From: Chitinophagales bacterium | GTDB taxonomy: Bacteria > Bacteroidota > Bacteroidia > Chitinophagales > Chitinophagaceae | Direction of reading: 5' to 3' | Assembly (NCBI GenBank): GCA_038241595.1 | Contig: JBBSSY010000001.1 | Span: 1-29,859, forward strand | DNA length: 29,859 nt | Shown: positions 3-28,604 of the stretch, one piece after another | Layout: every line of letters begins with the position of its first letter | How positions within the stretch are numbered: the stretch's first letter is position 1 | Translations under genes and position numbers: made by a program | The notes under the pieces: model-generated | The model's database searches: none | Told to the model about the DNA's origin: nothing | Seen by the model: the letters and a program-made list of their open reading frames with translations, nothing else

Positions 3-587
3 GGACTGCACAACGAGGATGAATTACAGGGTTATTTTATAAAACGCGTCGAGAAATACCTGCTCGCCCACAACAAAAAATTATTGGGTTGGGATGACAT
101 AATGGACGGTGGCGTGGCACCTACGGCGACCGTGATGAGCTGGCGCGGCGAGAAAGGAGGCATAGCAGCCGCTAAACAGGGCCATCAGGTAATTATGTCG
201 CCAAGCAATCCGCTGTACTTTAACAGGTACCAGGCCGATCCTGAGCATGAACCGCTGGCGGCCAGCTTTTCGATTAATACGCTGGAGCGGGTGTACCAAT
301 ACGATCCTCAGCCAAACGCACTTACCGACCGGCAAAAGCAATTTATTATTGGCGGGCAGGCTGCCATCTGGACCGAATTCGTTTCATCGGTGGAGCACCT
401 GGAATACATGCTCCTGCCACGGTTGCCGGCCATAGCCGAAGCGTTATGGACACCATTGGAAAAGAAATTATTTACCGGCTTCGTTGATCGCCTTAATCGA
501 TGGCATTTTGACGCATGGCAGCAAAAAGGCATCCGTTTTCATCCGGGCTATTTTACCAGCCGAACCCATGAGGGAAACAGGAAATAA
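3..587 (+). CDS. GH20 beta-N-acetylhexosaminidase, C-terminal part (5' truncated by window edge)
   Basis: Frame 3 is open from base 3: GLHNEDELQGYFIKRVEKYLLAHNKKLLGWDDIMDGG..VMSWRG..LYF..YQ..GGQAAIWTEF..EYMLLPRLPAIAEALW, the GH20 catalytic-barrel C-terminal half. It is collinear with the GH20 at 15116. Confidence 0.93.
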   Translation, partial: GLHNEDELQGYFIKRVEKYLLAHNKKLLGWDDIMDGGVAPTATVMSWRGEKGGIAAAKQGHQVIMSPSNPLYFNRYQADPEHEPLAASFSINTLERVYQYDPQPNALTDRQKQFIIGGQAAIWTEFVSSVEHLEYMLLPRLPAIAEALWTPLEKKLFTGFVDRLNRWHFDAWQQKGIRFHPGYFTSRTHEGNRK

Positions 588-2165: not shown

Positions 2166-2222
2166 AGCTTGAATGTCAATGTTAAGAAAGCACACCATAA
2201 CCCGTTAAAACAATAGTCAATT

Positions 2223-3737
2223 ATGAAAGCAATAATGGTCGTATCGATGATTTTGGCATCGTACATCGCAGCAGCCCAGCAACGGCCCAACATCGTCATC
2301 ATCGTTTCCGACGATCATGCCTATCAGGCCATCAGCGCCTATGGCAGCAAGCTGATGCAAACACCGGCCATTGATCGCATTGCCAAAGAAGGCGTCATTT
2401 TAAAAAAGGCTTATGTTACCAATTCGATCTGCGGTCCCAGCCGGGCAGTCTTATTAACAGGTAAGTACAGCAATAAAAACGGGTTTAAAGACAATGAGCA
2501 TTCCCGCTTTGATGGCAACCAGGATTCGTTTATCAAGCAACTGCGGAGCAGCGGCTACACCACCGCGTGGATAGGCAAGTGGCACCTGGAAACCAAACCG
2601 CAGGGCTTTGACTTTTGGCAGATATTGCCCGGCCAGGGACAGTATTACAATCCCGATTTTATCATGATGGACAGCAGCATCAAGCGTATCGACGGCTATG
2701 CCTCCAACGTTATAGAAGACGTCGCAGAAAACTGGCTGGACAAGCGCGAGGAAAGCAAACCATTTTGCCTGGTAATCGGGCACAAAGCCACGCACCGTAC
2801 CTGGATACCCGACACCGAAGACATGGGCCTGTTCGATAAGGTTACTTTTCCATTGCCGCCAAATTTTTATGATAATTACGCCGGTAGAGAAGCGGCAAAA
2901 GTGCAGGACATGACCATCGCCAAAACCTTAATTATGGGTTACGACCTAAAAATGTTCGACAGCGACGCGGCGGCGGATAAAGAAGGAGGTGTCAAGAGAA
3001 TGAACCCTGCGCAACGGGCAAAGTTCGATGCGTACTACAAGCCAATATATGCGGATCTGAAAGCCCGCAACTTAACCGGCAACGCCCTTACGGAATGGAA
3101 GTTTCAACGCTACATGCGGGATTACCTGAGTACCGCCGCCTCGCTCGACCGCAACATTGGCCGCACCCTTGAATATCTAGACAAACACCAGCTTGCAAAA
3201 AACACCATCGTCATTTACCTGTCCGACCAGGGATTTTTTATGGGTGAACATGGCTGGTTCGATAAGCGTTGGATGTATGAAGAATCGTTCCGTACGCCCA
3301 TGGTAATGCGGTACCCCGGCGTAATCAAACCCGGTACGGTCAGCAACGATTTTGTGATGAATCTTGACATCGCGCCAACCGTGCTGGATGCGGCCGGTGT
3401 TGCTATTCCACAAGACATGCAAGGCCAGTCGATGCTGCCTGTTCTCAACAAAACCGCGAAGGGCCGCGACGTGATGTATTATCATTATTACGAGAATGGC
3501 GAGCATGCGGTGTCGCCGCAATTTGGCATTAAAACGAAGCGCTACAAACTCATTCGTTTTTACAAAAGGGTCAACAGTTGGGAGATGTACGACTTGCAAA
3601 AGGATCCGCATGAAATGCACAACCTGTACGGCAAAAAAGGGTATGAACAGGTTACAGGCGATCTGCACAAACAGTTATTGCAGACTATTGATAAGTACGA
3701 AGACGACGATGCCAGGCAGGTATTAAACAGTAAGTAA
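2223..3737 (+). CDS. S1 family sulfatase (Cys-type), S1_11/mucin-desulfating GlcNAc-6-sulfatase-like
   Basis: RPNIVIIVSDDH, TNSICGPSRAVLLTGKYS, GKWHL, HKATHR, SDQGFFMGEHGWFDKRWMYEES. Signal peptide ends AAA-QQ. Confidence 0.92.
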   Translation: MKAIMVVSMILASYIAAAQQRPNIVIIVSDDHAYQAISAYGSKLMQTPAIDRIAKEGVILKKAYVTNSICGPSRAVLLTGKYSNKNGFKDNEHSRFDGNQDSFIKQLRSSGYTTAWIGKWHLETKPQGFDFWQILPGQGQYYNPDFIMMDSSIKRIDGYASNVIEDVAENWLDKREESKPFCLVIGHKATHRTWIPDTEDMGLFDKVTFPLPPNFYDNYAGREAAKVQDMTIAKTLIMGYDLKMFDSDAAADKEGGVKRMNPAQRAKFDAYYKPIYADLKARNLTGNALTEWKFQRYMRDYLSTAASLDRNIGRTLEYLDKHQLAKNTIVIYLSDQGFFMGEHGWFDKRWMYEESFRTPMVMRYPGVIKPGTVSNDFVMNLDIAPTVLDAAGVAIPQDMQGQSMLPVLNKTAKGRDVMYYHYYENGEHAVSPQFGIKTKRYKLIRFYKRVNSWEMYDLQKDPHEMHNLYGKKGYEQVTGDLHKQLLQTIDKYEDDDARQVLNSK

Positions 3738-3746
3738 ACCGGATGC

Positions 3747-3772
3747 ACACGTATAGACTGCGTGTCTTTTTT
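3747..3772 (+). terminator. Weak intrinsic terminator-like hairpin
   Basis: ACACGTA-tagac-TGCGTGT (7 bp, one G-U pair) followed by C and T6. Confidence 0.4.
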
Positions 3773-3799
3773 AATCACAAAATATAAAACTAAACAGCA

Positions 3800-6700
3800 A
3801 TGAGAAAGATAATTACAAGACTTATGCTTTGCATGTTGCTAAGTATATGCATGGCGGTGGCTATGGCCCAGCAAAAAAAGATTACAGGAACCGTCAAAGA
3901 CGATAACGGCAATCCTTTAATCGGCGCAACTTACCATGTAAAGGGTACAAACATCAATGGCGCCACCGATAGTAACGGAAATTTTTCGATAACGGTAAAT
4001 GGGGCAAATGCAGTACTGGAATTCACGACGGTAAACTTTGTCGCTAAAGAAGTACAAGTTGGTAACAGCAACATTTTACATGTGGTTTTATCAGCCAGCA
4101 ACAACAAACTGGACGAGGTAGTGGTTACGGCTTTTGGGGTGGGCAAGCAAAACAAAAAGCTTGGCTATGCCGTCACCACCATAAAGGGAGAAGATATTAC
4201 CCGAACAAATACTGTTAACCCAATTACTGCCTTACAAGGCAAGGTGGCTGGTGTGAATGTAAATGTTATGTCGGCAAGTGGTGTTCAAACATCTCCATTT
4301 ATTCAAATCAGGGGTTCTAAAGTTTTAGGAAAACCCGGCCAAAACTCCAACCAGCCAATTTTTGTGATTGATGGAAACGTATTGGAGAACAACACTTTTG
4401 ATGCGGATAACGCTGATGGCGGTTCGCAATTAAAAAATCTTAATCCGGATGATTATGAAGCCATCACGGTTTTAAAAGGCGCCGCGGCAACATCGGTTTA
4501 TGGTTCGCGTGGCATCAATGGCGCGATAGTAATTACCACAAAAAAGGGGAAAGCGGGCCAGGGTTTGGGCGTTGAATTTAACAGCACTTATTCAAACCAG
4601 CATATATACAAAGCTCCGATGGCTTACCAAAATACCTACGGCCAGGGCAGCTGGTCTGCCGCCGAAGGTAACTTCAGGCCCGACGGTACCGTGATTCAGA
4701 CTATGGGAAGTTGGGGTACGAAAATGGACGGTAGTTTGCACCCGGCTGTGTCTAATTTCGACAAAAAGGTTCCGTATTCACCACAACCCGATAACTGGAA
4801 AGTGTTTTATCAGGATGGAGCCTATATAAATAACAACCTGGCGTTGACAGGTGGTACGGAAAAATTTGGCTTTCGCATGTCGTATTCCAACAACCAGGCA
4901 ACCGGTACCCTGCCCAATAACGCTATGACAAGAAATGCTGTTGATTTAAAGATGAATGGCCAGTTAAATAAAGTGTTTTCAACCGAGTTGGGTGTTTCTT
5001 ATGCAAACACGGTGGCGCGTAACTTTTATTCACAAGGCCGTTACTATTTCGGCGGTGGCCAAAATCTCGGTTTCAATACGTATTATCTGCCGCGTAATAT
5101 AGATACCAAAGACTGGTATGCTACGTACAGGGCTGCAGATAATACTCCGGACTTGATCCATGCTTATGGGAACCTGTCAGCAGTGGTGAACGCATTTTCA
5201 AGATTTGATAAAAATAATTATTACCGTTACGAAAATTCTGTATTGGCCTACACCCAATTAAAAGCGCAGGTAGCTCCCTGGTTGGATTTTTCGGCAAGAG
5301 CCAACGTCAACTATTACAAAATATTTACAGAAGAAAAAAACCTGGGCAATGAGAAAGCTAACCGCGGCGGATATTACAGCGTAGGGGGCAACTATTCAAA
5401 CGATTACACTTTATTGTTCATGGGTCATGCCACCAAAGCGTTCAATGACGATTTTTCTGCTGATTTCAGGGTTATAAATGAAGTATATGGAAACAGGCAG
5501 GGGGAATCGTACAGTGCCAGTTCCAATGGTGGGTTAAGTGTTCCCAACCAGTTTTTTCTTGGCAATTCAGTTAACAACATACAAAACAACATCAAGTACG
5601 GCTACACAAAACCCTCCCGGCTAACCGTTGGTTTAGCAGGTATTTTAAACCTGAACTATAAACGATATCTAAATCTTGAAATCACAGGACGTAACGATTG
5701 GTTAAGTACCCTTACGTATCCCTACGCGGTCATTGGCGGGAATAACAATTATACGGTGTTTTACCCTTCGGTAAATGCTTCCTATTCTTTCGTCGACCAT
5801 TTTGCTGACGATATGCCAACCTGGTTGTCCTCCGGCAGGCTAAGGGCATCTCTTGCCTATGTAGGTAACTCCGGCATTGCCGGCGCTTATGCCACCGGTA
5901 GCGGTTATGTACCTGCCACTACTTACAATCAAAACGGACAATCGGTTGGATTGGCCACTCAATACAGAGCCAACATCAAACCCAATCTTAATCTGAAACC
6001 ACAGGTGCAGCGTTCTATAGAGCTTGGTACCAACTTCGGTTTGTTTAAGGAAAAGGTAAATGTGGATTTTGCATGGTACAAAACCAATACTTTCGACCAG
6101 TTGCTCGAATTGGGTGGTGTACCCGAAACCGGTTACAATACCATGTTTGTAAACGCAGGTAACATTCAAAACAAGGGCTGGGAATTGTTGGTAAATTATT
6201 CGCCCATACGCCAAAAGGATTTTGGTCTTGACCTGTCGGTGAACATGGCAAGCAATAAAAGTAAAATCATTGAATTTGGTAATGGCATTAAGCAATGGGA
6301 GCTGAGCGGCGGTTATGATGGCGCCAATGTATACGCCTATGAGGGCGGTGCCTTCGGAATTCTTACTTCAGAATCATCGGCTTCTGTTAAACACGATTCT
6401 AAAACGGGTTTCCCTTTGGTAACAGTTGGTGGCCGCAATGTAAACACCAATGCGTTGGATAAAAGAGATTTTCAATTATACGAATACGTTTCCAATACAG
6501 ATGCTGACGGCGCTGCACAAATCGGAAAAATTGAACCAAGCCTGACGGGTGGTGTAAGTGCTACGCTACGCTATAAAAACTTCTCCTTGTTTACACAGGT
6601 TGATGGCAGGTTTGGCGGCTGGGTATATTCCGAAGCATTGAACTATGCCATGGCACAGGGAACGCCTGAAGCATCATTGCAATGGCGCGACCAGGAGCAT

Positions 6701-7189
6701 GGTGGCGTTCAACGAATAGACTCATACAACGGTGCAAAAAGATATGACGGCGCCCTGCCAAACGTTGTATTTGCCGAGGGTCAGGTGAGCAAGATACGGC
6801 CAGGTGTCAGTGTTGCGGGAATGACTTTTAAAGAAGCATACGACCAGGGATTGGTGGAACCCTGGAAAGCGTCAGCCTATTATGTTTATTCATTTGGTTT
6901 TGGTACCAACATCAATAGCGTAAACAACATAAGCACCGCCAAAAATTCGTGGGTGATGATGCGTGAGGTGACCTTGGGATACAAACTGCCTGTTGGGGTA
7001 CTCGGTAAAACATTTTTAAGAGGTGCGCGGTTTAGCTTATCAGCCCGCAACATTGGTTACTTGTACAAAACATTGCCAGGCGGTCAAAACCCCGAGGCAC
7101 TGCAAAGTAACGACCCTTTCCGCCCCTACATCACCGGTGGTGTACCCTTTACGCGTAATTACGCCGCAACCATTAACATATCACTCTAA
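3800..7189 (+). CDS. susC: SusC/RagA TonB-dependent transporter (no STN domain)
   Basis: CarboxypepD_reg-like N-domain (ITGTVKDDNGNPLIGAT), LDEVVVTAFG, plug motif NPDDYEAITVLKGAAATSVYGSRGINGAIVITTKKG, beta-barrel C-terminus; adjacent susD. Confidence 0.97.
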   Translation: MRKIITRLMLCMLLSICMAVAMAQQKKITGTVKDDNGNPLIGATYHVKGTNINGATDSNGNFSITVNGANAVLEFTTVNFVAKEVQVGNSNILHVVLSASNNKLDEVVVTAFGVGKQNKKLGYAVTTIKGEDITRTNTVNPITALQGKVAGVNVNVMSASGVQTSPFIQIRGSKVLGKPGQNSNQPIFVIDGNVLENNTFDADNADGGSQLKNLNPDDYEAITVLKGAAATSVYGSRGINGAIVITTKKGKAGQGLGVEFNSTYSNQHIYKAPMAYQNTYGQGSWSAAEGNFRPDGTVIQTMGSWGTKMDGSLHPAVSNFDKKVPYSPQPDNWKVFYQDGAYINNNLALTGGTEKFGFRMSYSNNQATGTLPNNAMTRNAVDLKMNGQLNKVFSTELGVSYANTVARNFYSQGRYYFGGGQNLGFNTYYLPRNIDTKDWYATYRAADNTPDLIHAYGNLSAVVNAFSRFDKNNYYRYENSVLAYTQLKAQVAPWLDFSARANVNYYKIFTEEKNLGNEKANRGGYYSVGGNYSNDYTLLFMGHATKAFNDDFSADFRVINEVYGNRQGESYSASSNGGLSVPNQFFLGNSVNNIQNNIKYGYTKPSRLTVGLAGILNLNYKRYLNLEITGRNDWLSTLTYPYAVIGGNNNYTVFYPSVNASYSFVDHFADDMPTWLSSGRLRASLAYVGNSGIAGAYATGSGYVPATTYNQNGQSVGLATQYRANIKPNLNLKPQVQRSIELGTNFGLFKEKVNVDFAWYKTNTFDQLLELGGVPETGYNTMFVNAGNIQNKGWELLVNYSPIRQKDFGLDLSVNMASNKSKIIEFGNGIKQWELSGGYDGANVYAYEGGAFGILTSESSASVKHDSKTGFPLVTVGGRNVNTNALDKRDFQLYEYVSNTDADGAAQIGKIEPSLTGGVSATLRYKNFSLFTQVDGRFGGWVYSEALNYAMAQGTPEASLQWRDQEHGGVQRIDSYNGAKRYDGALPNVVFAEGQVSKIRPGVSVAGMTFKEAYDQGLVEPWKASAYYVYSFGFGTNINSVNNISTAKNSWVMMREVTLGYKLPVGVLGKTFLRGARFSLSARNIGYLYKTLPGGQNPEALQSNDPFRPYITGGVPFTRNYAATINISL

Positions 7190-7208: not shown

Positions 7209-9032
7209 ATGAAGAATATATATAAATACATCATTGCTTTGCTGGCGGTAGCCTGTTTGTCTCAATCGTGTAAAAAACAAATGATTGAACTCAATACAAA
7301 TCCCAATCTGCTAAACGATGCCGCGCCTGAATATCTTTTTACCGGCGCTACTGCCGACATGGGAGTAACTTCAAGAGATAGAACTTCAAAGAAGTATGCT
7401 ACTACGATGACCTGGATGCAGTACGTGGTACCCGAAGGCACCAGTACAGACGCATTGGTAAAATTTTACTGGAAACCTGGATCGGGACCAACACAGGGCC
7501 CAATTCCCGGTTTTACTTACTACACCGACTATTTCTCTGCTGCGGGCAGGGATATGAACCGGATTATAAATAAGATTGACAATATGAACGACGCCGACAA
7601 GGAAAAATACAAGGGGTTACGTGCCATTTGTCAAACAGTCGACGTTTTCCAGGCCTGGCGGGTAGCCGATATTTACGGCGCCTTACCGTACAAGGAAGCT
7701 TTTTTGCCCGATGAATATTCAATGCCACAGTACGATTATAACTGGGATCTCTACAAAGTTTTTGAAACAAAGCTGAAGGCAGCAGCCACTGTGTTGTCAG
7801 CTTCCGGTTCCGCACAACTTGCTTTAGGTAACCAGGATATGTTTTTTGGTGGTGATTACACTAAATGGCTGGGATTTGCGAATAGCCTGCGCATAAAAAT
7901 TGCACAACGCTTCGAAAAGCGCGATGCCGCACAGCTGACTGCTGTGTTAACTGACATCGCCGGCAATTTTGCCGGTAAAATTATGTCGGCTAATGATGGA
8001 TCCTTTGCAATAAACAATACCCGCGACTGGAACAACAATGTGGATGATATCAACACAATTCTGTTTAGCTACAATGCGGCGTTTCCCTTTGTGCAGCAGC
8101 TAAAAGCTACAAACGACCCGCGTATCAGTTTTATGGTGCGTCAAAACGACTTTGGCACCAATTCAAAACAGTACAGGAGAGTGCAGGATCTGGGTACACC
8201 TGCTTCTAAAGCGGCCTTGTTACTTCCCGAAAACCAGGAGCGTTATGCAGGCAAGCATGCTACGCCTGCTTCGGCCGGCAATACAGACTATGGCACTGCT
8301 GGTGGCAACAGGTACAAAACATTTGCCCTTACCGGTTCTAACGGCAACCAAACGCTGAGCTATCAGTCTGCTATCCAGTCAAGGTTGTTTATAAAGAATG
8401 GTGGTTTTGGTGGATTTAATGCACTGTCATCCCGCGATTTGATGTACGATGATGAAAGCTTTGTGGATGGTTCTACGATTAAGATGAAAACCTATTATAT
8501 CTCGTATCCTGACGTATGTTTCATGATGGCCGAAATTGCTGCCAAAGGTGGCAACGGTTTGGGTAAAACCGCGGAAGCGTGGTACAGGGCCGGGGTCACC
8601 GCATCGTTCGACTTGTACAAGCAAATGGCTGTTGCTACAAATGTACCCGGAGCAACTTCCGTTACAGCGGGCTCATTTGCCACTACCATTCCGTATACCG
8701 GTTTGCCTGGTATATATACACAACAATGGGTAAATAACCTGCTTACCCCCGATGAGGCATGGGCCACCTGGAAACGTACTGGCTATCCTCAATTCACTGA
8801 TGTTCGTTCAACAAGCAATGGACTGATCGGCACAAGCAGCATTGCTTACCTGGAAAATCTTTGGGATGGTGGTGAGAATATGCTAATTACACGCAGAGAT
8901 GCATTGCAAATGACTTCAACGATAAATCAGCCAAATTTTGTTTCAGCGGTTGAAGCGCAAAAAAACAAGGATGCATCCTACGGAGCTTCTTCTACAGATA
9001 CTAAAGGACGCATTTGGTGGGATAAACAATAG
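7209..9032 (+). CDS. susD: SusD/RagB-like outer-membrane lipoprotein (607 aa)
   Basis: ATG at 7209, 19 nt after the susC stop. Lipobox LSQS-C then KKQMIELNTNPN; DIYGALPY, W..FANSLRIKIAQR and EAWATWKRTGYP..RIWWD are SusD-like features. Confidence 0.92.
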   Translation: MKNIYKYIIALLAVACLSQSCKKQMIELNTNPNLLNDAAPEYLFTGATADMGVTSRDRTSKKYATTMTWMQYVVPEGTSTDALVKFYWKPGSGPTQGPIPGFTYYTDYFSAAGRDMNRIINKIDNMNDADKEKYKGLRAICQTVDVFQAWRVADIYGALPYKEAFLPDEYSMPQYDYNWDLYKVFETKLKAAATVLSASGSAQLALGNQDMFFGGDYTKWLGFANSLRIKIAQRFEKRDAAQLTAVLTDIAGNFAGKIMSANDGSFAINNTRDWNNNVDDINTILFSYNAAFPFVQQLKATNDPRISFMVRQNDFGTNSKQYRRVQDLGTPASKAALLLPENQERYAGKHATPASAGNTDYGTAGGNRYKTFALTGSNGNQTLSYQSAIQSRLFIKNGGFGGFNALSSRDLMYDDESFVDGSTIKMKTYYISYPDVCFMMAEIAAKGGNGLGKTAEAWYRAGVTASFDLYKQMAVATNVPGATSVTAGSFATTIPYTGLPGIYTQQWVNNLLTPDEAWATWKRTGYPQFTDVRSTSNGLIGTSSIAYLENLWDGGENMLITRRDALQMTSTINQPNFVSAVEAQKNKDASYGASSTDTKGRIWWDKQ

Positions 9033-9148: not shown

Positions 9149-10657
9149 ATGATGAGAATAACATTATTTGGGATTTGCCTGCTGTCGGTACTCCAGGTTG
9201 CCGCGCAAAAATTGTCCTACAAAAATTTCGCAATCATTCAGGAGGGAGACACGCAACAGGACATTATTCGCAAGGCGGCCAATGTGGTGCCATCACCACG
9301 CCAATTGCGCTGGCAGCAACTGCAACTCACCGTATTTTTTCATTATGGGATCAACACCTTTACCGGCAGGGAATGGGGCGATGGAAAAGAAGACCCGACC
9401 CTTTTCAATCCTACGCTACTGGATGCACGGCAATGGGTGCGCACCGCCAAAGAAGCAGGATTTAAACAGGTTATCCTCACCGCCAAACACCACGACGGCT
9501 TCTGTTTGTGGCCAACCGCCACAACCAGTCATTCGGTAAAAAGCAGCCCGTGGCAAAATGGCACCGGCGATTTGGTGAAAGACGTTCGAAATGCCTGTGA
9601 CGAATATAAAATCGGATTCGGCATTTACCTTTCGCCCTGGGATCGTAATGCGGCCGTGTATGGTACCGATGCTTACAACGACTTTTTTATGAAGCAGCTT
9701 ACGGAGCTCCTGACCAACTATGGCCGTATAGATGAGGTGTGGTTTGACGGAGCAAACGGTGAAGGCCCCAATGGCAAAAAACAAGTGTATGACTTTGACC
9801 GTTGGTACGCTCATATTCGCAAACTGCAGCCATCGGCTACCATTGCTATCATGGGACCTGACGTGCGGTGGGTAGGTACTGAAACAGGTTATGGCCGCGA
9901 CACCGAATGGAGCGTGGTGCCAGCCGATAATCTCGACCAGTCTGTCGTGGCGGGAAGCTCGCAGCAAGGCATTGCCTTTAAACCGAAGGGCGACATGCGC
10001 GGCAGCGATCTTGGCAGCCGCGATAAAATTGCCAGTGCCAAAGCGTTGGTGTGGTATCCTGCAGAAACCGACGTGTCCATCCGGCCGGGTTGGTTTTATC
10101 ACAAGGAGGAAGATGACAAGGTGAAATCGCCTGAAAAGCTGCTCGACATCTATTACAGTTCCGTAGGTAAAAACAGCGTATTGCTGTTAAATATTCCGCC
10201 AGATAAAAGTGGCCTTGTAAATGAAAGTGATGTTCGCAGTCTGCAGCAATGGACCCGGTTGCGGGATGCGACCTTTTCCAAAAACCTGGCAAAAGGGGCA
10301 GCCATAAAATCACCCAACGGTAAAAACAACAAGGCGCTGACAGATAATAAATACCAAACCTATTGGACCACCACGCAAAACGATACTACCGCTATTTTGA
10401 ACTTTTCTTTCAACAGGCCAGTCAATTTCGATGTGCTGGAATTGCAGGAAAACATTGCCATTGGACAACGAATTGAACATTTTATCCTGGAGTACAAACA
10501 CAACAATGAATGGAAACCGTTGGCTGAAGGCACCACTGTGGGTTATAAAAGATTGTTACGCTTTGATCCGGTAACAGCAGATACAGTGAGGCTGCGCATC
10601 TTATCGTCAAGATTAAATCCAACGTTGAGCGAATTTGGATTGTACAAACAGCCATAA
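9149..10657 (+). CDS. GH29 alpha-L-fucosidase (GH29B alpha-1,3/4-type appearance) with C-terminal F5/8-like domain
   Basis: FFHYGINTFTGREWGDG, LTAKHHDGFCLWPT, YLSPWDRN, EVWFDGANGEG, RWVGTETG, DVSIRPGWFY. Confidence 0.95.
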   Translation: MMRITLFGICLLSVLQVAAQKLSYKNFAIIQEGDTQQDIIRKAANVVPSPRQLRWQQLQLTVFFHYGINTFTGREWGDGKEDPTLFNPTLLDARQWVRTAKEAGFKQVILTAKHHDGFCLWPTATTSHSVKSSPWQNGTGDLVKDVRNACDEYKIGFGIYLSPWDRNAAVYGTDAYNDFFMKQLTELLTNYGRIDEVWFDGANGEGPNGKKQVYDFDRWYAHIRKLQPSATIAIMGPDVRWVGTETGYGRDTEWSVVPADNLDQSVVAGSSQQGIAFKPKGDMRGSDLGSRDKIASAKALVWYPAETDVSIRPGWFYHKEEDDKVKSPEKLLDIYYSSVGKNSVLLLNIPPDKSGLVNESDVRSLQQWTRLRDATFSKNLAKGAAIKSPNGKNNKALTDNKYQTYWTTTQNDTTAILNFSFNRPVNFDVLELQENIAIGQRIEHFILEYKHNNEWKPLAEGTTVGYKRLLRFDPVTADTVRLRILSSRLNPTLSEFGLYKQP

Positions 10658-11029: not shown

Positions 11030-12940
11030 ATGAAAAAATTCATTTTTATCGTTCTGTTTTTTGTTGCGCTTTGTACACATGCCGCTGATACGCTGCACGT
11101 GGTCACCCATAAAAAGGAAACCATTGTTACCGATCCGGTGCATGGTTTTAATGAATATAAAAGATGGGGCGTGTTTCCGTCACGTGCAACGCCGGTACGA
11201 AAAATTATGCTGAAGGTGCAATTTGCCTGTCCTGAAAACATGCGCTGTGCCGATTGGGATTACAATGACCATATCACCATCAGAAGGAGAGGCGGCTTGC
11301 ATGGCGCATCCCAGGATTATGAGATTGGCCGCATGCTTACGCCCTATGGTGGAGCGTTTGCGAAAGACTGGACGTTTAACTGGGAAGTAGATGTGACCGA
11401 CTTCAGTATGCTGCTGCGCGATAGCATCGAAATTGGCTATAATCATACCGGTTATGAACCCAACAACGATCGTGGATGGGCCGTAACCCTCGATTTTGAA
11501 ATCATCCAGGGAACACCCGCATGGGAGCCCATCAGCATACAAAAAATTTATGAAAACAGTTATCGCTATGGCGACAGCAGCAAGCCGATTGAAGATGAAT
11601 TGACGCCTGTAACCTTTACAGCGGCACAGGGCGCAGACTTTGCCCGGTTGCGAATTTTGCAAACAGGCCATGGCATGGACCGCCCCGATGGATGCGGCGA
11701 ATTTTGCAATAAGTACCGGCAGGTAATTTATGATGGAAAGCTGATCGATACCCGGTCGATTTGGAAAGTGTGCGGCGATAACCCGTTGTATCCGCAGGCC
11801 GGCACCTGGATATATGACCGCGCCAACTGGTGCCCCGGCAATTTAATGCAGCCCGATATTTTCAACCTGCCGGTTGCCAGGGGTGGCGAACATACGATCG
11901 ATGTAAACATGCAACCCTACGTGTCGATAAAGCCATCGGCGGATGAAGTAATAGCTGCCTATTTAATTCAGTACAAAAAAGCGGCAGAAAAAAATGATGT
12001 GGCGCTGCTGGATATAATTAGCCCAACCATAAAAGATGCCTTCCGCAGGTACAATCCATCGGTTAAACAGCCGACCATTATCGTGAAAAATGTTGGTGCT
12101 GCCAATATAAAAAGCATGCACGTTAATTACGGATTAGCGGGATCAAACAAAAAAAATTACCAGTGGACGGGCAACCTGGCGCCATTTGCCTCGGACACTG
12201 TTATACTTCCGGGCACTATCGAAACCAGGAAACGTCGTGACCAGTTTGAAGTGGCGTTGTTGAAGCCGAATGGAAAAAAAGACGGCTATGATGCCGACAA
12301 CAAAATGACAAGCTGGTTCGACGCCGTGTCCCGGCAAGACTCTACACTCATTGTGTACCTGAAAACAAACAACCAGCCTTCGCAGACTGCCTATGTGTTA
12401 AAGGATGCCAATGGAAACGTGGTGCAGCAACGATCGCTTGGTTCGTTGGCAGCAAACACGGTATACCGCGATACGGTGAACCTTGCTGAAGGCGGTTATC
12501 GTTTTACATTAATGGACAGCGCCGACAATGGACTTGAATTTTGGGCCAATGCCAGGGGCGGCAGCGGAAGGGCAAGATTGCTTAATAAAAAGGGCGAGAT
12601 CATCCAGTATTTTGAATCAGACTTTGGAAAATTTATTCAATATGATTTCATGGTAGGCAGGCCTGTAACACCGGTTGCGGCTGTCAATTCGTTTGGGCTT
12701 TATCCAACAAGAACGAAAGATAATACAACCCTTGATTACTATGGCAATGTCCCTGCTGAAGTAAAGGTGCAAATCCTGACAGATCCGGGAGAAAAGATAG
12801 TGGAGGAACATACGTACAGCGACCTTACTGAAGGTGTGTTTACGTACGACCTCAGTCGTTTTCCCAAAAGCCGGTTCTACTTGAAAGTGCTTATAAATGG
12901 CGAAGAAAAATTCAAAAAACGAGTTCGGTTAAAAGAATAG
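11030..12940 (+). CDS. Peptide-N-glycosidase F (PNGase F)-family protein with Ig/CARDB-like domains and a T9SS-like C-terminal domain
   Basis: Motifs CPENMRCADWDY, EIGRMLTPY, DVTDFSMLL, TGHG, GCGEFC and DRANWCPG match the PNGase F motif order (CDEWDR, EIARFITPY, DVTDF, GWGH, GCAEWC, DRAGWCPG). Has a Sec signal peptide. Confidence 0.88.
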   Translation: MKKFIFIVLFFVALCTHAADTLHVVTHKKETIVTDPVHGFNEYKRWGVFPSRATPVRKIMLKVQFACPENMRCADWDYNDHITIRRRGGLHGASQDYEIGRMLTPYGGAFAKDWTFNWEVDVTDFSMLLRDSIEIGYNHTGYEPNNDRGWAVTLDFEIIQGTPAWEPISIQKIYENSYRYGDSSKPIEDELTPVTFTAAQGADFARLRILQTGHGMDRPDGCGEFCNKYRQVIYDGKLIDTRSIWKVCGDNPLYPQAGTWIYDRANWCPGNLMQPDIFNLPVARGGEHTIDVNMQPYVSIKPSADEVIAAYLIQYKKAAEKNDVALLDIISPTIKDAFRRYNPSVKQPTIIVKNVGAANIKSMHVNYGLAGSNKKNYQWTGNLAPFASDTVILPGTIETRKRRDQFEVALLKPNGKKDGYDADNKMTSWFDAVSRQDSTLIVYLKTNNQPSQTAYVLKDANGNVVQQRSLGSLAANTVYRDTVNLAEGGYRFTLMDSADNGLEFWANARGGSGRARLLNKKGEIIQYFESDFGKFIQYDFMVGRPVTPVAAVNSFGLYPTRTKDNTTLDYYGNVPAEVKVQILTDPGEKIVEEHTYSDLTEGVFTYDLSRFPKSRFYLKVLINGEEKFKKRVRLKE

Positions 12941-13067: not shown

Positions 13068-15095
13068 ATGAAGTATTTACTGGGTTTTCTCGTTTGCATG
13101 AGTATGGCATCTTTCGCCTTTGGCCAACGTGATACCATTGCCTTAAATGTGGATTGGCGGTTTGTTATCGACAAGACAGGGGAGGGGATGGGCCAGCAAT
13201 GGTTTAGCAAAGAACTGGCCGGTTCAAAGGAGGTGCAATTGCCGCATACCTGGAACATCGAACCCAATAATCAAAATCATTATGGTTGGGGATGGTACCA
13301 GAAGAAAATAGCCGTACCTGCCCAATGGAAGAGCAAGAACGTCGTGCTGCAGTTTGGCGCCGTAAACCACACCTCGTATGTTTATGTGAACGGCGTACAG
13401 GTGACCGAAAATATCGGCGACGGGTTCAATAAATTCTTTGTGAACCTTACCGGGCTATTGGCATATGGCAAAGACAACATTATTACCGTGGCGGTTAACA
13501 ACGACTATGGCAGGAACAAGGTGCCTTTTGGTTCGTCGTTCGACTGGCCAAATGATGGTGGAATCATTCGACCTGTTGCGATGATAGTGAGCAACAAGCC
13601 TGCAGCCAATTACGTGCACATAACCCCCCGGTTAAACCTGGTAAACAACGAAGGTGAACTGCAGGTTACACTGGGCTTCGATAAACAGGGGAAAAAGTCA
13701 TTAAAACTGGCTGTGACCATTACGGAAGAAAACCAGCCAACCCATCATGTGGTTCTTACAAAAACATCAACACCTGTTTGGCAAGATGCCGAAGCAACGG
13801 TAAATTTTGTTTTGCCAACAGTTAATCCGTGGCATTTCGATTTCCCCAATTTGTACCGGGTGGATGTAGTGGTTATTGATGGAAACAAGGCGGTTGACAG
13901 GCTTAGTGCCAACATAGGCTTCAGGCAAATAAAATTCATAAATGGACAAACGTTTTTGAACGGGGAAAGGGTTAAACTGATGGGTGTGGAGTGGACGGCT
14001 GGATCGAACCCTGATTATGGCTTTGCCGAAACTGATTCTATCATCATTAGCCAGGGAAAACTGATGAAAGACGTAAATGCCATCTTTACCCGTCAGCATT
14101 TTCAGCAGTCGGATGTGTTCTACGATTTCTGCGACCGCAATGGAATTATTGTTCAGCAGGAAGTGCCATTGTGGGGCCCTGAAACGCCCGCGAATGATAC
14201 CATTCAACGCATAGCGATGTCGCAACTACAGCGGATGATCGGCAATAACTACAACTACACCAGCATTTTTGCATGGGGTGTGGGCAATGAGTTGAGGGGC
14301 AGATCGGCAGATATTAAAAAGATGATCACCGCGCTGATAGCACGGGCAAGATCGTTGGATAGCTCCAGGATGGTTGCCTATGTAAGCAACACACTTACCC
14401 AGAACTTTTATAATGATCCACACTTTTCACCCGACGCGGCCAATGATGGCGACTTTATTATGATGAATGAATATGGCGGAAGCTGGTGGGCCATCCCCAC
14501 AGGAAAGATCCACAATTACCTGGACAGTGTGCACATGAGCTATCCTGATAAGCCATTCTTTATTTCCGAGTTTGGCTTGTGTGCCCCAAATTTTAGAGGT
14601 GGCGACGAAAGAAGATTGCAGGACCTCATCTATCACATGGCGATTTATGAAACCAAGCCCTATGTAGAAGGGGCTATTTACTTCGATCTGACCGACTACC
14701 GCACCCACTACCCCGGCACGTTAGAAAACGACAAGTTCAGAAGGCGTATCCATGGCGTGTACGATATGTATGGCAAGCCAAAACCATCTATGAAGGTGTT
14801 GCGCGAAATGTCGTCGCCTGTTGAAGTGCAGCAAATGATACGAAAGGGTAAAGACAAGTCAGGCGTTCTGATATTTGGTAATATCGGCTTACCACAGCAT
14901 GCGGTCAGCGGTTATAAATTATACCTGTCAGATAAATTGGACAATTATTTAGACTCAAAAGCCTATAACATTCCTGTGTTGCAACCGGGCCAACGCGTAA
15001 CGATTGATGTTGATGATCCGTTTGATGCAAAAGGAATTTTAACTGTTGTTCGTCCAAACGGTTATGTTGTTTCACAAAAATCATTTGCAGAGTAA
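13068..15095 (+). CDS. GH2 glycoside hydrolase, specificity unclear
   Basis: Sugar-binding domain (LPHTWN, WYQKKI, FGAVNHTSYVYVNG, GGIIRPV), W..DFPNLY, IGFRQI; putative acid/base WGVGNE (E408) and nucleophile ISEFG (E501). Confidence 0.92.
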   Translation: MKYLLGFLVCMSMASFAFGQRDTIALNVDWRFVIDKTGEGMGQQWFSKELAGSKEVQLPHTWNIEPNNQNHYGWGWYQKKIAVPAQWKSKNVVLQFGAVNHTSYVYVNGVQVTENIGDGFNKFFVNLTGLLAYGKDNIITVAVNNDYGRNKVPFGSSFDWPNDGGIIRPVAMIVSNKPAANYVHITPRLNLVNNEGELQVTLGFDKQGKKSLKLAVTITEENQPTHHVVLTKTSTPVWQDAEATVNFVLPTVNPWHFDFPNLYRVDVVVIDGNKAVDRLSANIGFRQIKFINGQTFLNGERVKLMGVEWTAGSNPDYGFAETDSIIISQGKLMKDVNAIFTRQHFQQSDVFYDFCDRNGIIVQQEVPLWGPETPANDTIQRIAMSQLQRMIGNNYNYTSIFAWGVGNELRGRSADIKKMITALIARARSLDSSRMVAYVSNTLTQNFYNDPHFSPDAANDGDFIMMNEYGGSWWAIPTGKIHNYLDSVHMSYPDKPFFISEFGLCAPNFRGGDERRLQDLIYHMAIYETKPYVEGAIYFDLTDYRTHYPGTLENDKFRRRIHGVYDMYGKPKPSMKVLREMSSPVEVQQMIRKGKDKSGVLIFGNIGLPQHAVSGYKLYLSDKLDNYLDSKAYNIPVLQPGQRVTIDVDDPFDAKGILTVVRPNGYVVSQKSFAE

Positions 15096-15115: not shown

Positions 15116-17413
15116 ATGAAAAAAATTACCATGATACTGCTTGTATCGGTTGTCTCCGCTGCAGTGTTTGCCCAGGCAACTAACTCAATCATTCCCCGCC
15201 CGGTTTCCATTCAAATGGGAGCGGGCAGTTTTGTTGTCGATAACAATACGGGAATCCAATTCAATTCTGCACAAAAATTATTGAAGAACGCGGCTGATTT
15301 TATGGCCGCACATATCAAACAAATAAGTGGCTACAGCCTTCCCATAAATGGCAGCAAAGCCAAAACGATCGCCTTAAAAATTGGTAAGGTCGCTGCTATT
15401 GGCGATGAAGGGTATGAGTTGAATGTGTCACCAAAGCACATAATTATTTCGGCAAATACCACGGCGGGAATCATTTACGGCATGCAGTCGTTGTTCCAAA
15501 CACTTCCGCAGGTCCGTACCAACGAATCGCTGCAAATTCCGGCCATGCAGGTAACCGATTATCCCCGTTTTCCATGGAGAGGAATGCACCTGGATGTGAG
15601 CCGTCATTTTTTTCCCCCGTGGATGATCAGGGAATATATTGACCTGATGGCTTCCTATAAATTAAATACTTTTCATTGGCATTTGGTTGACGACCAGGGA
15701 TGGCGGATAGAAATAAAAAAGTATCCGCTGCTTACAAAAGTGGGTGCCTGGCGGGTAGATAAGCTCGACCAGGTTTGGAGTCAGCGCCCGCAGGCCATCG
15801 AAGGGGAACAAGCCAATTATGGTGGCTATTACACGCAGGAGCAAATTAGGGACATCATTCAATATGCCGCCCAACGAAACATAAACATAATTCCAGAAAT
15901 CGAGATGCCGGGACACGTCGCCTCGGCCATAGCGGCTTATCCATTTTTAAGCTGCACGCAAAAACCGCAACTTCCGTTAACCGGCGGCAACTACACCAAT
16001 ATGTCGTCAAACTATTGTGCCGGCAACGATTCTGTTTTTACTTTTCTTCAAAATGTCTTAACAGAAGTAATAGATCTCTTTCCTTCAAAATTAATACATA
16101 TTGGCGGCGATGAGGTAGACAAAGGCCCCTGGAAAGTTTGCCCTAAATGCCAGGCACGTATAAAAGCCGAAGGGCTGCACAACGAAGATGAATTACAGAG
16201 CTATTTTATCAAGCGCATTGAAAATTTTGTTGAAAGCAAGAAAAGGAAAATTGTAGGCTGGGATGAAATACTGGAAGGTGGATTGGCTCCTTCGGCAACG
16301 GTAATGAGCTGGCGCGGTGAAGCTGGCGGGATAGAAGCTGCCAAAATGCACCATGATGTGGTGATGACCCCCGGTACTCCCTTGTATTTTGACCATTACC
16401 AGGCCGGCCCTGAAGGTGAACCGTTGGCAATCGGTGGCATGAACACCTTAAAAAGTGTGTATGAATATAATCCCATACCGAAGGAATTAACTGAGGGCGA
16501 GGCGAAGTATGTGTTGGGTGCCCAAGCCAATGTATGGACGGAATACATCCTTACTCCGGCAGGCCTGGAATATATGGTTTTACCCCGTATGCTTGCGTTG
16601 GCCGAAGTGGTTTGGAGTCCGCCTGCTGTCAAAGATTTTAATGACTTCAACAAGCGCCTGCAGTATCACTTCAAAGGCTTCGATCAAAAAGCACTGAACT
16701 ACAGCAAGGGCAATTTCACCGTGGCCATTAAACCGGTGTCCGCCAATGGTAAATTGCAGGTGGCACTATCCACCGAAGCGCTGAATGGCGAGATATTCTT
16801 CACGACCGATGGCCGTACCCCCACCATCGAAAGTACCCAATACACACAGCCGTTCACCATCGATTCGTCGGTGGTAATAAAGGCGGTCACTGCGGTAAAA
16901 GGATCGGTGCTTGGCCTGGTGCCGGCACAGCAAAGTTTCGTGGTTCACAAAGCGCTGGGCAAAAATGTAACCTATCAAAATCCGGCAAGCCGTTACTATC
17001 TTGCCGATGGTCCCAATTCGCTTACGGATGGCGTCAGGGGAACCAAAGCGGTTGGCAAATACTGGCACGGCTTTTCTGCAAAAGATATGATTGCCACCAT
17101 TGATTTGGGCGAAGAAAAAAGTGTCCAGTCAATTGGCCTCGGTTGCCTGCAAAATTATAGCGACTGGATATTTTTGCCTGCATCCGTAAAATTTGAAAGT
17201 TCAAATGATGGTAAAAATTTTACCGAATTGAGTACGGTTGACAACCCGGTGCCGGTCAACGAAAAATCTGCGTTGCATGATTTCGTAAGTGAATTTCCGG
17301 CTAAAAATGTGAGATACATTCGTGTTACAGCAAAAAACGGACTGTGCCCGGCGGGCCATCCGGGTGCCGGTAAACCCGCCTGGATTTTTGCCGATGAAAT
17401 TGTGGTCAGATAA
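15116..17413 (+). CDS. GH20 beta-N-acetylhexosaminidase with GH20b, chitobiase/Fn3-like and F5/8-like domains
   Basis: DYPRFPWRGMHLDVSRHF, FHWHLVDDQGWR, PEIEMPGH, catalytic HIGGDE, GWDEI; FTTDGRTPT and LTDGVRG/IDLGE C-terminal modules. Confidence 0.96.
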   Translation: MKKITMILLVSVVSAAVFAQATNSIIPRPVSIQMGAGSFVVDNNTGIQFNSAQKLLKNAADFMAAHIKQISGYSLPINGSKAKTIALKIGKVAAIGDEGYELNVSPKHIIISANTTAGIIYGMQSLFQTLPQVRTNESLQIPAMQVTDYPRFPWRGMHLDVSRHFFPPWMIREYIDLMASYKLNTFHWHLVDDQGWRIEIKKYPLLTKVGAWRVDKLDQVWSQRPQAIEGEQANYGGYYTQEQIRDIIQYAAQRNINIIPEIEMPGHVASAIAAYPFLSCTQKPQLPLTGGNYTNMSSNYCAGNDSVFTFLQNVLTEVIDLFPSKLIHIGGDEVDKGPWKVCPKCQARIKAEGLHNEDELQSYFIKRIENFVESKKRKIVGWDEILEGGLAPSATVMSWRGEAGGIEAAKMHHDVVMTPGTPLYFDHYQAGPEGEPLAIGGMNTLKSVYEYNPIPKELTEGEAKYVLGAQANVWTEYILTPAGLEYMVLPRMLALAEVVWSPPAVKDFNDFNKRLQYHFKGFDQKALNYSKGNFTVAIKPVSANGKLQVALSTEALNGEIFFTTDGRTPTIESTQYTQPFTIDSSVVIKAVTAVKGSVLGLVPAQQSFVVHKALGKNVTYQNPASRYYLADGPNSLTDGVRGTKAVGKYWHGFSAKDMIATIDLGEEKSVQSIGLGCLQNYSDWIFLPASVKFESSNDGKNFTELSTVDNPVPVNEKSALHDFVSEFPAKNVRYIRVTAKNGLCPAGHPGAGKPAWIFADEIVVR

Positions 17414-27102: not shown

Positions 27103-28604
27103 ATGATTATGAGAAAGCTTGTTAAGGACTTACGTGTTATTTTATTGGTATCCATAGCTTTTTCTTTTACAGGAGCTGTGAGGAAATCTGCTGTAAATGA
27201 TAACCAGGTAATCATTTATCCATCGGAAGATACAACCTCCCTGATAAGGAACCCCGCCATGGGATGGGGATTATATGATGACGCTGACGACAAGGTTACC
27301 ATTGCAGAAAGTTATTGGGTTACACAAGATGAAGCTGCAAAAAAATACGCTTCTCATTTTTACATCCGATGGCGCTGGAGCGATATGGAACCGGAAGAAG
27401 GAAAGTATGCGTGGATATATGATGATAATTTTAAAAAGCTCATAAAAGGCGCTTTGGATAGAAATCTTAAATTGGCCTTCCGTATTTACATAAACGGACA
27501 AGACAATATTAAACCAGCCACTCCAGGTTATGTAAAGGAAGCAGGCGCAAAGGGATATCAAACGCAGAAAAGCGGTGGCGGGTTTAATTGGACTCCCTAT
27601 CCCGACGACCGTGTTTTCCAGGAAAAGTTTTCAAAATTTATCCAGGCCTTTGCCAAAGCGTTTGATGATCCTTCGAGGGTTGATTTTGTGGACGGAAATG
27701 GTTTAGGGCAGTGGGGTGAAGGTGATAATATAAAGACGATTCACAACGATCAGCTTGCTGTGTTTAAATGGATCATAGATCTCTACGGAGATAATTTCAA
27801 GAAAATATTGTTAGTTACCAATCTGGGCAGCCAGGAGGGTTTGGAAGCAGAGAAAAAAATCGCCTACTATGGCGATGATTTCCTGCCGCGAAGGGATGGC
27901 CTGGGGAGCCATTGGTTTAAAGAAGATCAGAAAAAGATGATGGCATCATTATTTCCACGAATGCCGCTTATTGGGGAATCTTGCTATTGGCAAAGCAACA
28001 GCAAGCTTTTTCAAAATGATCCTGCTTTTAAAGCATATGCTCAGCCGGTTACCTGGAAAGATGTTTACCACCTGACTTATAACGATGCGATCGCTTCCCA
28101 TGCCAATTCTTTAGATTTAAGGGAGCCGGACCAGACAAGGCGTTGGATAGATACAGTTCCTGAATTGGTGAAAAAGTTCATGATAAAGGGGGGTACAGGT
28201 TTCACCCCGGCTTTTTATCCATTCCAAACCAAATTAAATCGGGTGGTAGTTTTCACATCGAACACGATTGGAAGAATACGGGAGTTGGAATGTGTCCCAA
28301 TAACAACAAAAGATGGAATTTTAAATATAAAGTAGCCTTTGCATTGATTGAAAAATCGAACATGAAAGTAAAGCAAATGTTTATTGACGAAAAGGCTGAT
28401 CCGTCTCAATGGACAGAAGGATTTGAGTACAAATATTCCTTAAAGGGAAAACTTGCCGCGAACATTGAAGCAGACGATTATATACTGGGTCTGGCGATTG
28501 TTGATACCACCAATAATAAACCAGGTATTCAACTGGCAATTAAGGATCTTCGAAAGCTAAAAAGCGGGTGGTTTGAAATGGGGACAGTTAAAGTATATAG
28601 GTGA
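27103..28604 (+). pseudogene. DUF4832-type putative glycoside hydrolase, split by a 1-nt frameshift at G6 (28188-28193)
   Basis: The 27103 ORF has RNPAMGW, YIRWRWSDMEPEEGKYAW and GQWGE. Adding one G yields KGGYRFHPGFLSIPNQIK..IEHDWKNTGVGMCPNNNKRWNFKYKVAFAL, fusing with ORF 28290-28604 into a 500-aa protein. Confidence 0.75.

Follow-up and report, generated by a model that had tools for sequence, protein, structure and literature searches.

A putative PNGase F-type amidase with threonine at the Glu118 position, encoded in a likely N-glycan utilisation locus of a Chitinophagales bacterium

Peptide-N-glycosidase F (PNGase F) is the standard tool for N-glycan release, and it fails on the core alpha-1,3-fucosylated glycans of plants and invertebrates. 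Glu118 of this enzyme occupies the site that an alpha-1,3-fucose would take (PMC9522356). The type II PNGases have a glycine at that position and are active on glycans of plants and insects; in the PNGases of Bacteroides group 1 (including 3ks7), which behave like PNGase F and do not cleave plant glycans, it is an aspartate (PMC9522356). In PNGase F-II a relocated glutamate (E418/E419) is thought to replace the Glu118 contact, and it coexists with a fucose pocket (PMC9522356). Bakshani et al. (2025) expressed six enzymes taken from different parts of the superfamily tree, whose models leave an open space under the chitobiose that the authors related to activities on core alpha-1,3-fucosylated substrates; one of them, PNGaseL, is broad and has been proposed for commercial use, and the other five are narrower (PMC12381499). 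Zebrafish Ngly2 is a proven PNGase that depends on the equivalents of D60 and E206 (PMC12753239). Here we describe a gene for a member of this superfamily carried by a stretch of 29,859 nucleotides (the window; positions 1 to 29,859 of contig JBBSSY010000001.1, assembly GCA_038241595.1) from a Chitinophagales bacterium of the family Chitinophagaceae, and set out what was observed of its homology, its fold, the residues equivalent to those of PNGase F, their conservation and the gene context.

The gene is a single open reading frame (ORF) for a protein of 636 residues, and it encloses the interval 11100-11980 in which an earlier note, made from the sequence alone, had recognised a PNGase F-like domain (residue numbers used here follow the start of this ORF, and the codons were checked). 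We read its product as an exported amidase of the PNGase F type that carries out the glycan-releasing step of a polysaccharide utilisation locus (PUL) and probably tolerates core alpha-1,3-fucose; this reading, taken as a whole, is on balance the probable one. To judge by its sequence the protein is very likely an active PNGase, and tolerance of core alpha-1,3-fucose, considered by itself, is plausible, with the chances about evenly divided.

The catalytic domain belongs to the PNGase F superfamily. In pairwise phmmer searches of the PDB, PNGase F (1pnf/1pgs/3pms) was matched with an E-value of about 1e-16, followed by weaker matches to PNGase F-II, the B. fragilis and B. vulgatus PNGases, zebrafish Ngly2 and the plant/insect PNGase of Phocaeicola massiliensis. 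Pfam reports N-glycanase_C (PF09113) at residues 189-294 (E 6.8e-15, 55.5 bits against a cut-off of 25), and a profile built for the PDB search from 72 full, diverse catalytic domains reached 1pnf with E 2.9e-44, covering residues 5-301 of 314. An AlphaFold2 model of residues 18-330 (predicted local distance difference test score, pLDDT, 94.7; predicted template modelling score, pTM, 0.92) has as its best Foldseek match 1pnf_A, the PNGase F-chitobiose complex (E 2.6e-18, template modelling score, TM, 0.78). A comparison of this model with 1pnf by VIA-align aligned 284 of its 313 residues at 25% identity, with Z 30.3 and a root-mean-square deviation of 2.5 A; next came zebrafish Ngly2 with Z 28.1 and, at Z about 24, the type II enzymes and those of Bacteroides. 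The two side-by-side eight-stranded antiparallel jelly rolls by which the PNGase F fold is recognised (superfamily InterPro IPR015197) are present. The superposition on PNGase F and PNGase F-II that had been suggested as a check thus stands as a match of the global fold, with the Z-scores just given.

The profile alignment to PNGase F is gapless from a common DVTDF motif through the strand that ends at residue 140, with maximal HMMER posteriors, and it pairs the catalytic and chitobiose-binding residues and the cysteines of the two proteins. The six cysteines map column for column onto the three PNGase F disulfides, 51-56, 204-208 and 231-252 (C67/C73 correspond to C51/C56, C222/C226 to C204/C208, C248 to C231 and C268 to C252), and each is kept in at least 137 of 151 diverse representatives. 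These derive from a sample of 150 representatives of 50%-identity clusters, the library clusters numbering 1218 at E <= 1e-3 and 278 at E <= 1e-30. Among the representatives without a gap at the position, the catalytic D77 is found in 145 of 145 and W76 in 140 of 145, E224 is a glutamate in 149 of 149 (its neighbour F225 takes the place of W207), and R264 and W267 are each present in 148 of 148. The equivalents of the chitobiose-binding residues are all there (W76, H214, Y142, R264 and W267). The earlier note had proposed most of this by eye, namely the catalytic core, the equivalences of W76-D77, E224, R264 and W267, the placing of the six cysteines and the alignment of GHGM with GWGH, and the profile alignment reproduces every one of these assignments. 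The histidine of GHGM had been listed there as a change, and it is not a notable one: in the alignment of G213-H214-G215-M216 with G190-W191-G192-H193, H214 is conserved in 149 of 149 representatives, and histidine has been described as usual in the GHG loop, with PNGase F as the exception (PMC12381499).

The end of this strand and the residues after it are aligned as I135-G136-Y137-N138-H139-T140-G141-Y142 with L113-K114-I115-Y116-T117-E118-T119-W120 (IGYNHTGY against LKIYTETW), which places Thr140 in the Glu118 column and is identical to the pairing drawn by eye in the earlier note. In the same register the profile aligns the aspartate of the B. fragilis PNGase (3ks7) to T140, and the equivalence of T140 and E118 is recovered again when a sister-clade protein is aligned with 1pnf and 4qhb. 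An alternative pairing of His139 with E118, given by a weaker pairwise phmmer alignment with a one-residue gap, was rejected, since the ungapped register recurs in the 72-sequence profile and in the sister-clade alignments.

Across the 151 representatives the E118 column contains S in 54, T in 28, D in 22, G in 17 and E in 12, with few others; it is free of acid in 117 of 151 and acidic in 34. Within the clade of the gene (the 120 closest cluster representatives, at least 52% identical) position 140 is T in 87, S in 20, N in 9, I in 3 and V in 1, and never D or E. A threonine in this column is not unusual, because a non-acidic residue is the majority state of the superfamily, and it is PNGase F, together with the Bacteroides group 1 enzymes (both with an acid in the column), that is the special case. 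Zebrafish Ngly2 has an alanine there in the profile alignment, and since this protein is active the acid is dispensable for catalysis. Because a small, non-acidic Thr140 stands where Glu118 crowds O3 of the innermost N-acetylglucosamine (GlcNAc), core alpha-1,3-fucose would probably be tolerated, as it is by characterised non-type-I relatives. The connection between loss of Glu118, or open space in that region, and action on core alpha-1,3-fucosylated glycans, on which the earlier note had relied, is indeed published (PMC9522356, PMC12381499).

The strand is followed by a hairpin (residues 141-147 in the model) that is three residues longer than that of PNGase F. Its first residue, G141, is nearly invariant in the wider set, where 145 of 151 representatives also have Tyr or Trp at position 142. 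In the sister subclade, which is where D or E arises at 140, the hairpin is shorter, position 139 is a Tyr and position 143 a Ser or Gln. As a side observation, the clade of the gene bears a signature beside the active site, four of the five residues H139, G141, E143, D147 and R148 being different in the sister subclade (Gly141 is kept and the column of Asp147 is missing). Glu143 could be a relocated carboxylate, to judge by the alignment, and was overlooked in the earlier note, which had stated that the protein lacks an equivalent of E118. As far as alignments can tell, that statement is established for position, Thr140 belonging to a clade that is never acidic there, and not for function, given a Glu143 that is invariant in the clade.

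Compared with the described enzymes, the protein shares with PNGase F of Elizabethkingia meningoseptica (1PNF/1PNG/1PGS/3PMS) the two-jelly-roll fold, the catalytic Asp and Glu, the three cysteine pairs, the Trp before the catalytic Asp, the Arg/Trp pair and the absence of an N-terminal bowl-like domain. It differs from it in Thr140 (Glu118), Tyr78 (Arg61), His214 (Trp191), Tyr142 (Trp120) and Phe225 (Trp207), in the three additional residues of the hairpin and in about 310 additional C-terminal residues, which form two immunoglobulin (Ig)-like modules and a domain resembling a C-terminal domain (CTD) of the type IX secretion system (T9SS). The acidic residue (Glu/Asp) that type I enzymes have in the E118 column is replaced by Thr140. 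With the type II enzymes (PNGase F-II, 4R4X/4R4Z; P. massiliensis, 7ZGN) it has in common the catalytic fold, a non-acidic E118 column and the histidine of GHG, whereas they have Gly in the column where it has Thr, and they possess an N-terminal bowl-like (NBL) domain where the mature protein described here starts with the catalytic domain at residue 20; a counterpart in E143 of their relocated glutamate (E418/E419) is a conjecture. The Bacteroides group 1 enzymes (B. fragilis BF0811, 3KS7; B. vulgatus, 4QHB) agree in fold and strand register, but between their two sheets they have an insert, which is absent from the protein described here. Zebrafish Ngly2 (9LWG), the second-best structural match and likewise non-acidic in the E118 column, differs in that it is a dimeric lysosomal protein of a eukaryote, has thioredoxin-like and protease-associated domains and works best at acidic pH. 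The likeness to the enzymes of Bakshani et al. extends to a non-mammalian Bacteroidota origin, C-terminal beta modules, an aromatic-Asp-aromatic motif and a loop with His and Glu (PMC12381499). In PNGaseDo, from Draconibacterium orientale, three beta modules are combined with a T9SS signal (PMC12381499), an arrangement similar to the one found here, where the last module is CTD-like, and PNGaseL, from Flavobacterium akiainvivens, differs in having one small C-terminal module (PMC12381499). Orthology with PNGaseDo and PNGaseL may be proposed from architecture and taxonomy alone.

Homologues of the 636-residue protein number more than 1800, are mostly about 640 residues long and are named 'peptide-N-glycosidase F-related protein'; the nearest named relatives come from Chitinophagaceae (81%) and Flavisolibacter (68%), and the gene is single-copy in the assembly of its genome (3.7 Mb, 86% complete). 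The N-termini of orthologues vary up to a conserved (A/S/G)DTLHV, which marks the mature start, and their alignment contains no conserved lipobox cysteine. Export of the protein is likely, as read from its sequence, and T9SS is a plausible route. The C-terminal half (residues 325-636) was modelled by AlphaFold2 with pLDDT 94.5 as three beta-sandwich modules, for which Foldseek gave generic matches of low TM (Ig/fibronectin type III (FN3) domains, macroglobulin (MG) domains and PorU) and no identifiable carbohydrate-binding family. Some orthologues carry PF18962, the T9SS sorting domain, in precomputed annotation. The features of the protein and of its neighbourhood are collected in Table 1.

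Table 1. Positions in the window of the PNGase gene, of its parts and of the neighbouring features
Feature	Positions	Strand	Basis
Whole gene, PNGase F-superfamily protein (P0001), 636 residues, TAG stop included	11030..12940	+	ORF list and translation
Predicted signal peptide, residues 1-19 (MKKF...CTHAA)	11030..11086	+	read from sequence
Catalytic domain, residues 20-325, two PNGase F-type jelly-roll beta-sandwiches	11087..12004	+	profile, AlphaFold2, Foldseek, VIA-align
W76-D77-Y78, equivalent to PNGase F W59-D60-R61; catalytic Asp, aromatic-Asp-aromatic/positive motif	11255..11263	+	profile alignment
Thr140, equivalent to PNGase F Glu118; final residue of model strand 132-140	11447..11449	+	profile alignments, AlphaFold2
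Hairpin G141-Y142-E143-P144-N145-N146-D147-R148; Y142 equivalent to W120	11450..11473	+	profile alignment, AlphaFold2
His214 of GHGM, equivalent to Trp191 of PNGase F GWGH	11669..11671	+	profile alignment
Glu224, equivalent to PNGase F Glu206, second catalytic residue, between C222 and C226	11699..11701	+	profile alignment
R264-A-N-W267-C268, equivalent to PNGase F R248...W251-C252	11819..11833	+	profile alignment
Two Ig/FN3-like beta-sandwich modules, residues ~326-432 and 433-547	12005..12670	+	AlphaFold2; borders approximate, from strand pattern
C-terminal beta-sandwich resembling T9SS type A sorting domain, sub-threshold	12671..12937	+	Pfam, AlphaFold2 model
ORF at the window edge, 5'-truncated, encoding the C-terminal portion of a second GH20 catalytic domain	3-587		Pfam, E 1.8e-38
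SusC-like	3800-7189	+	Pfam
SusD-like	about 7215-9032	+	Pfam
GH29-B alpha-L-fucosidase with C-terminal F5/8 type C (CBM32-like) domain (residues 388-486)	9149..10657	+	Pfam, PDB search
GH2	13068-15095	+	Pfam, NCBIfam
GH20	15116-17413	+	Pfam, NCBIfam

The PNGase gene lies in a co-oriented run that reads, in order, a fragment of a glycoside hydrolase (GH) family 20 gene at the window edge, two sulfatases, SusC, SusD, GH29, PNGase, GH2 and GH20. The run continues with two divergent regulators (LacI and GntR), a GH35, a second SusC/D pair, an ORF of 410 residues and a GH31; the 410-residue ORF (27103-28335, between the second SusD and GH31) was matched by neither Pfam nor NCBIfam at the thresholds applied. 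The longest ORF for SusD begins with a GTG at 7023 and would overlap the end of SusC by 167 bases, and the start at 7215, which gives a signal-peptide-like MKNIYKYI..., is more likely. The GH29 neighbour clearly belongs, by its sequence, to subfamily B: its best PDB matches are 4zrx (E 1.8e-167) and the AfcB alpha-1,3/4-fucosidase 3ues (E 3.1e-134, with 3mo4 similar), followed by SpGH29 and BT2192 (3eyp) at about 1e-101 to 1e-105, whereas GH29-A structures are reached only at about 1e-16 to 1e-21. GH29-B enzymes typically remove antennary alpha-1,3/4 (Lewis) fucose, and the presence of one here fits complex fucosylated antennae of the plant Lewis a or the animal Lewis x kind. The larger ORFs of the window yielded no GH18 or GH85 endoglycosidase, and the region is most likely an N-glycan utilisation locus in which the PNGase is the glycan-releasing enzyme.

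Relatives of the protein are encoded in at least 578 stretches of a one-genome-per-species collection, and the neighbourhood counts that follow refer to the 80 orthologous loci that were kept. A GH29 gene is found within 8 kb of the PNGase gene, or fused to it, in 15 of the 80, nearly always directly downstream. In eight of them PNGase and GH29 are fused in a single protein of about 1105 residues, with the fucosidase after the CTD-like module (loci L019 (8142-11264), L033, L037, L045, L048, L051, L052 and L064; proteins P0082, P0090-P0095 and P0118), and no description of a PNGase-GH29 fusion was found in a search of the literature. The CTD-like module is internal in these fusions and thus cannot serve as a C-terminal T9SS signal there. 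The fused fucosidase is GH29-A-like (6gn6, E 3.5e-48) and only 25% identical to the GH29-B of the window; since two different GH29 subfamilies adjoin the PNGase or are fused to it, the link to fucosylated N-glycans is a recurrent one, though not universal. Both subfamilies occur together in the contig of a Chitinophagaceae metagenome-assembled genome (MAG; L013:118-4978), where a GH29-A-like gene (2175-3266) comes after the PNGase orthologue and a GH29-B gene (3551-4978) after that, the product of the latter being 69% identical to the GH29-B of the window. About 21 loci (Flavobacteriaceae by title; for example, L046:7379-13422) have the orthologue beside OsmC-like and RecJ genes, outside glycan-utilisation loci, with a gene for a major facilitator superfamily (MFS) transporter in about 10 of them, and these orphan orthologues indicate that the PNGase family is not tied to one type of PUL. 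Full-length orthologues also occur, at 48-49% identity, in Prolixibacteraceae, the family to which Draconibacterium presumably belongs.

Under the proposed function, an exported peptide-N4-(N-acetyl-beta-glucosaminyl)asparagine amidase would work outside the cell and free intact N-glycans from glycoproteins or glycopeptides. Its Asp77 and Glu224 would act on the Asn-GlcNAc amide in the same way as their counterparts in PNGase F, and the chitobiose core would be gripped by Trp76/Tyr78, His214, Tyr142, Arg264 and Trp267, on loops presumably fixed by the three disulfides. The SusC/D proteins would then import the freed glycan, and its antennae would be trimmed by GH29-B, GH2/GH35, GH20 and the sulfatases; the substrates would be complex, fucosylated and possibly sulfated N-glycans.

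A number of observations weigh against this proposal. In the clade of the gene (the same 120 representatives), H139 is conserved in 119, G141 in 120, E143 in 120, D147 in 119 and R148 in 120, and the hairpin residues Glu143, His139, Asp147 and Arg148 could fill the space left by Glu118 or remake its contact. The equivalence of Thr140 and Glu118 is confirmed as one of position, by sequence and profile alignments and a match of the global fold. Five of the six characterised relatives are narrow in spite of their open models, so that an open site is no predictor of breadth (PMC12381499). The GH29-B neighbour, which the earlier note had rightly assigned to that subfamily and had taken as consistent with a possibly broad specificity, says little on core fucose because enzymes of this kind are of the antennary type, and a GH29 accompanies the gene in only the minority of loci counted above; the window contains no alpha-mannosidase and no beta-xylosidase gene. 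Pfam did not report N-glycanase_N (PF09112) in the protein at E <= 0.1, although PNGase F residues 5-137 are nonetheless covered by the profile alignment. With respect to secretion, the match to Por_Secre_tail (Pfam PF18962/TIGR04183) at residues 557-631 stays below threshold (15.4 bits against a cut-off of 27, E 0.023), residues 545-636 scanned alone gave no T9SS CTD match, and a scan of the whole genome returned 19 CTD matches (17 above the cut-off), among which the C-terminal module of the PNGase did not appear. What the observations reported here lead us to infer is the activity, the route of secretion and the range of substrates, and most of all the tolerance of fucose.

The conservation of the hairpin would also suit an active PNGase with the limits of a type I enzyme, in which the hairpin would fold back, Glu143 would replace Glu118 and the innermost GlcNAc would remain crowded at O3, so that high-mannose and complex glycans (alpha-1,6-fucosylated or unfucosylated) would be released and core alpha-1,3-fucosylated ones would not. 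We regard this as possible, though rather doubtful. Besides the near-total invariance in the clade of E143, H139, D147 and R148, it would agree with the relocated glutamate of PNGase F-II as a precedent (PMC9522356), with a fold nearer to PNGase F than to the type II enzymes, by the Z-scores given above, and with a set of neighbours (GH2, GH20, GH35, GH29-B and sulfatases) that suits animal-type complex glycans. It would agree as well with the distribution of acids, since acid at 140 and acid at 143 never occur together (acid at 143 in 0 of 34 representatives with acid at 140, against 48 of 117 without; Fisher p 4e-7), a result that is confounded by shared ancestry: the anti-correlation separates two subclades, and is therefore suggestive only and no independent evidence of compensation. 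On the other hand, the relocated glutamate of PNGase F-II coexists with a fucose pocket, which shows that a relocated acid need not block (PMC9522356), and in published models of non-type-I relatives that region is open (PMC12381499). E143 is aligned with L121, which strand alternation would place on the face opposite to E118 and W120, a weak argument, as the model strand ends at T140. In a further, unlikely reading the clade would have evolved a third solution to the problem posed by Glu118: Glu143 would supply the carboxylate contact to the chitobiose from a different loop, Thr/Ser140 would leave O3 open, glycans would be stripped whatever their core fucosylation, and the repeated coupling to a fucosidase, by adjacency or by GH29-A fusion, would serve to clear the core fucose exposed by the release; the signature of such a clade would be His139-x-Gly141-Tyr/Trp142-Glu143 on a longer hairpin closed by Asp147-Arg148.

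It is improbable that the enzyme is instead dependent on core alpha-1,3-fucose, in the manner of PNGase F-II, the P. massiliensis enzyme and PNGaseRz, and specialised in plant or invertebrate glycans. The E118 column is non-acidic here too, GH29 genes recur beside the orthologues, and the Lewis a antennae of plant complex N-glycans (PMC9522356) could be dismantled by GH29-B, GH35/GH2 and GH20. Yet the protein has no N-terminal bowl-like domain, its clade has Thr or Ser rather than Gly in the column, its fold is nearer to PNGase F and Ngly2 than to 4r4x and 7zgn, the window contains no GH92 or GH3-type enzymes for the plant core, and many orthologues are orphans beside housekeeping genes. That the protein is not an amidase at all, but a diverged or glycan-binding protein of the PNGase fold that tethers glycoproteins at the cell surface, seems most improbable. 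N-glycanase_N was undetected and NCBIfam has no model matching the 636-residue protein, but all the catalytic and substrate-binding positions tested are invariant across the 151 divergent representatives, which would be unexpected in a binding module, and active PNGases are matched with very strong E-values and Z-scores. An exported amidase that releases N-glycans and probably tolerates core alpha-1,3-fucose is thus the reading that we retain.

Enzymes that join the robustness of PNGase F with tolerance of core fucose would be of use to glycomics and for analysing biologics made in plants. The gene described here is a reasonable candidate, coming from a very large and easily sampled Bacteroidota clade that offers natural variants with T, S, N, I and V at position 140. 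The gain would be incremental, because the principle has been published (type II PNGases, PNGaseL) and a broad enzyme of the superfamily already exists, and the interpretation of the earlier note, partly supported by these results, was reasonable but less novel than it had been taken to be, with a modest biotechnological interest. For the biology of these organisms, the locus suggests that in a soil-type member of the Bacteroidota a secreted PNGase may be the first step of N-glycan foraging, and the recurrent association with GH29 suggests that fucosylated N-glycans are a regular substrate.

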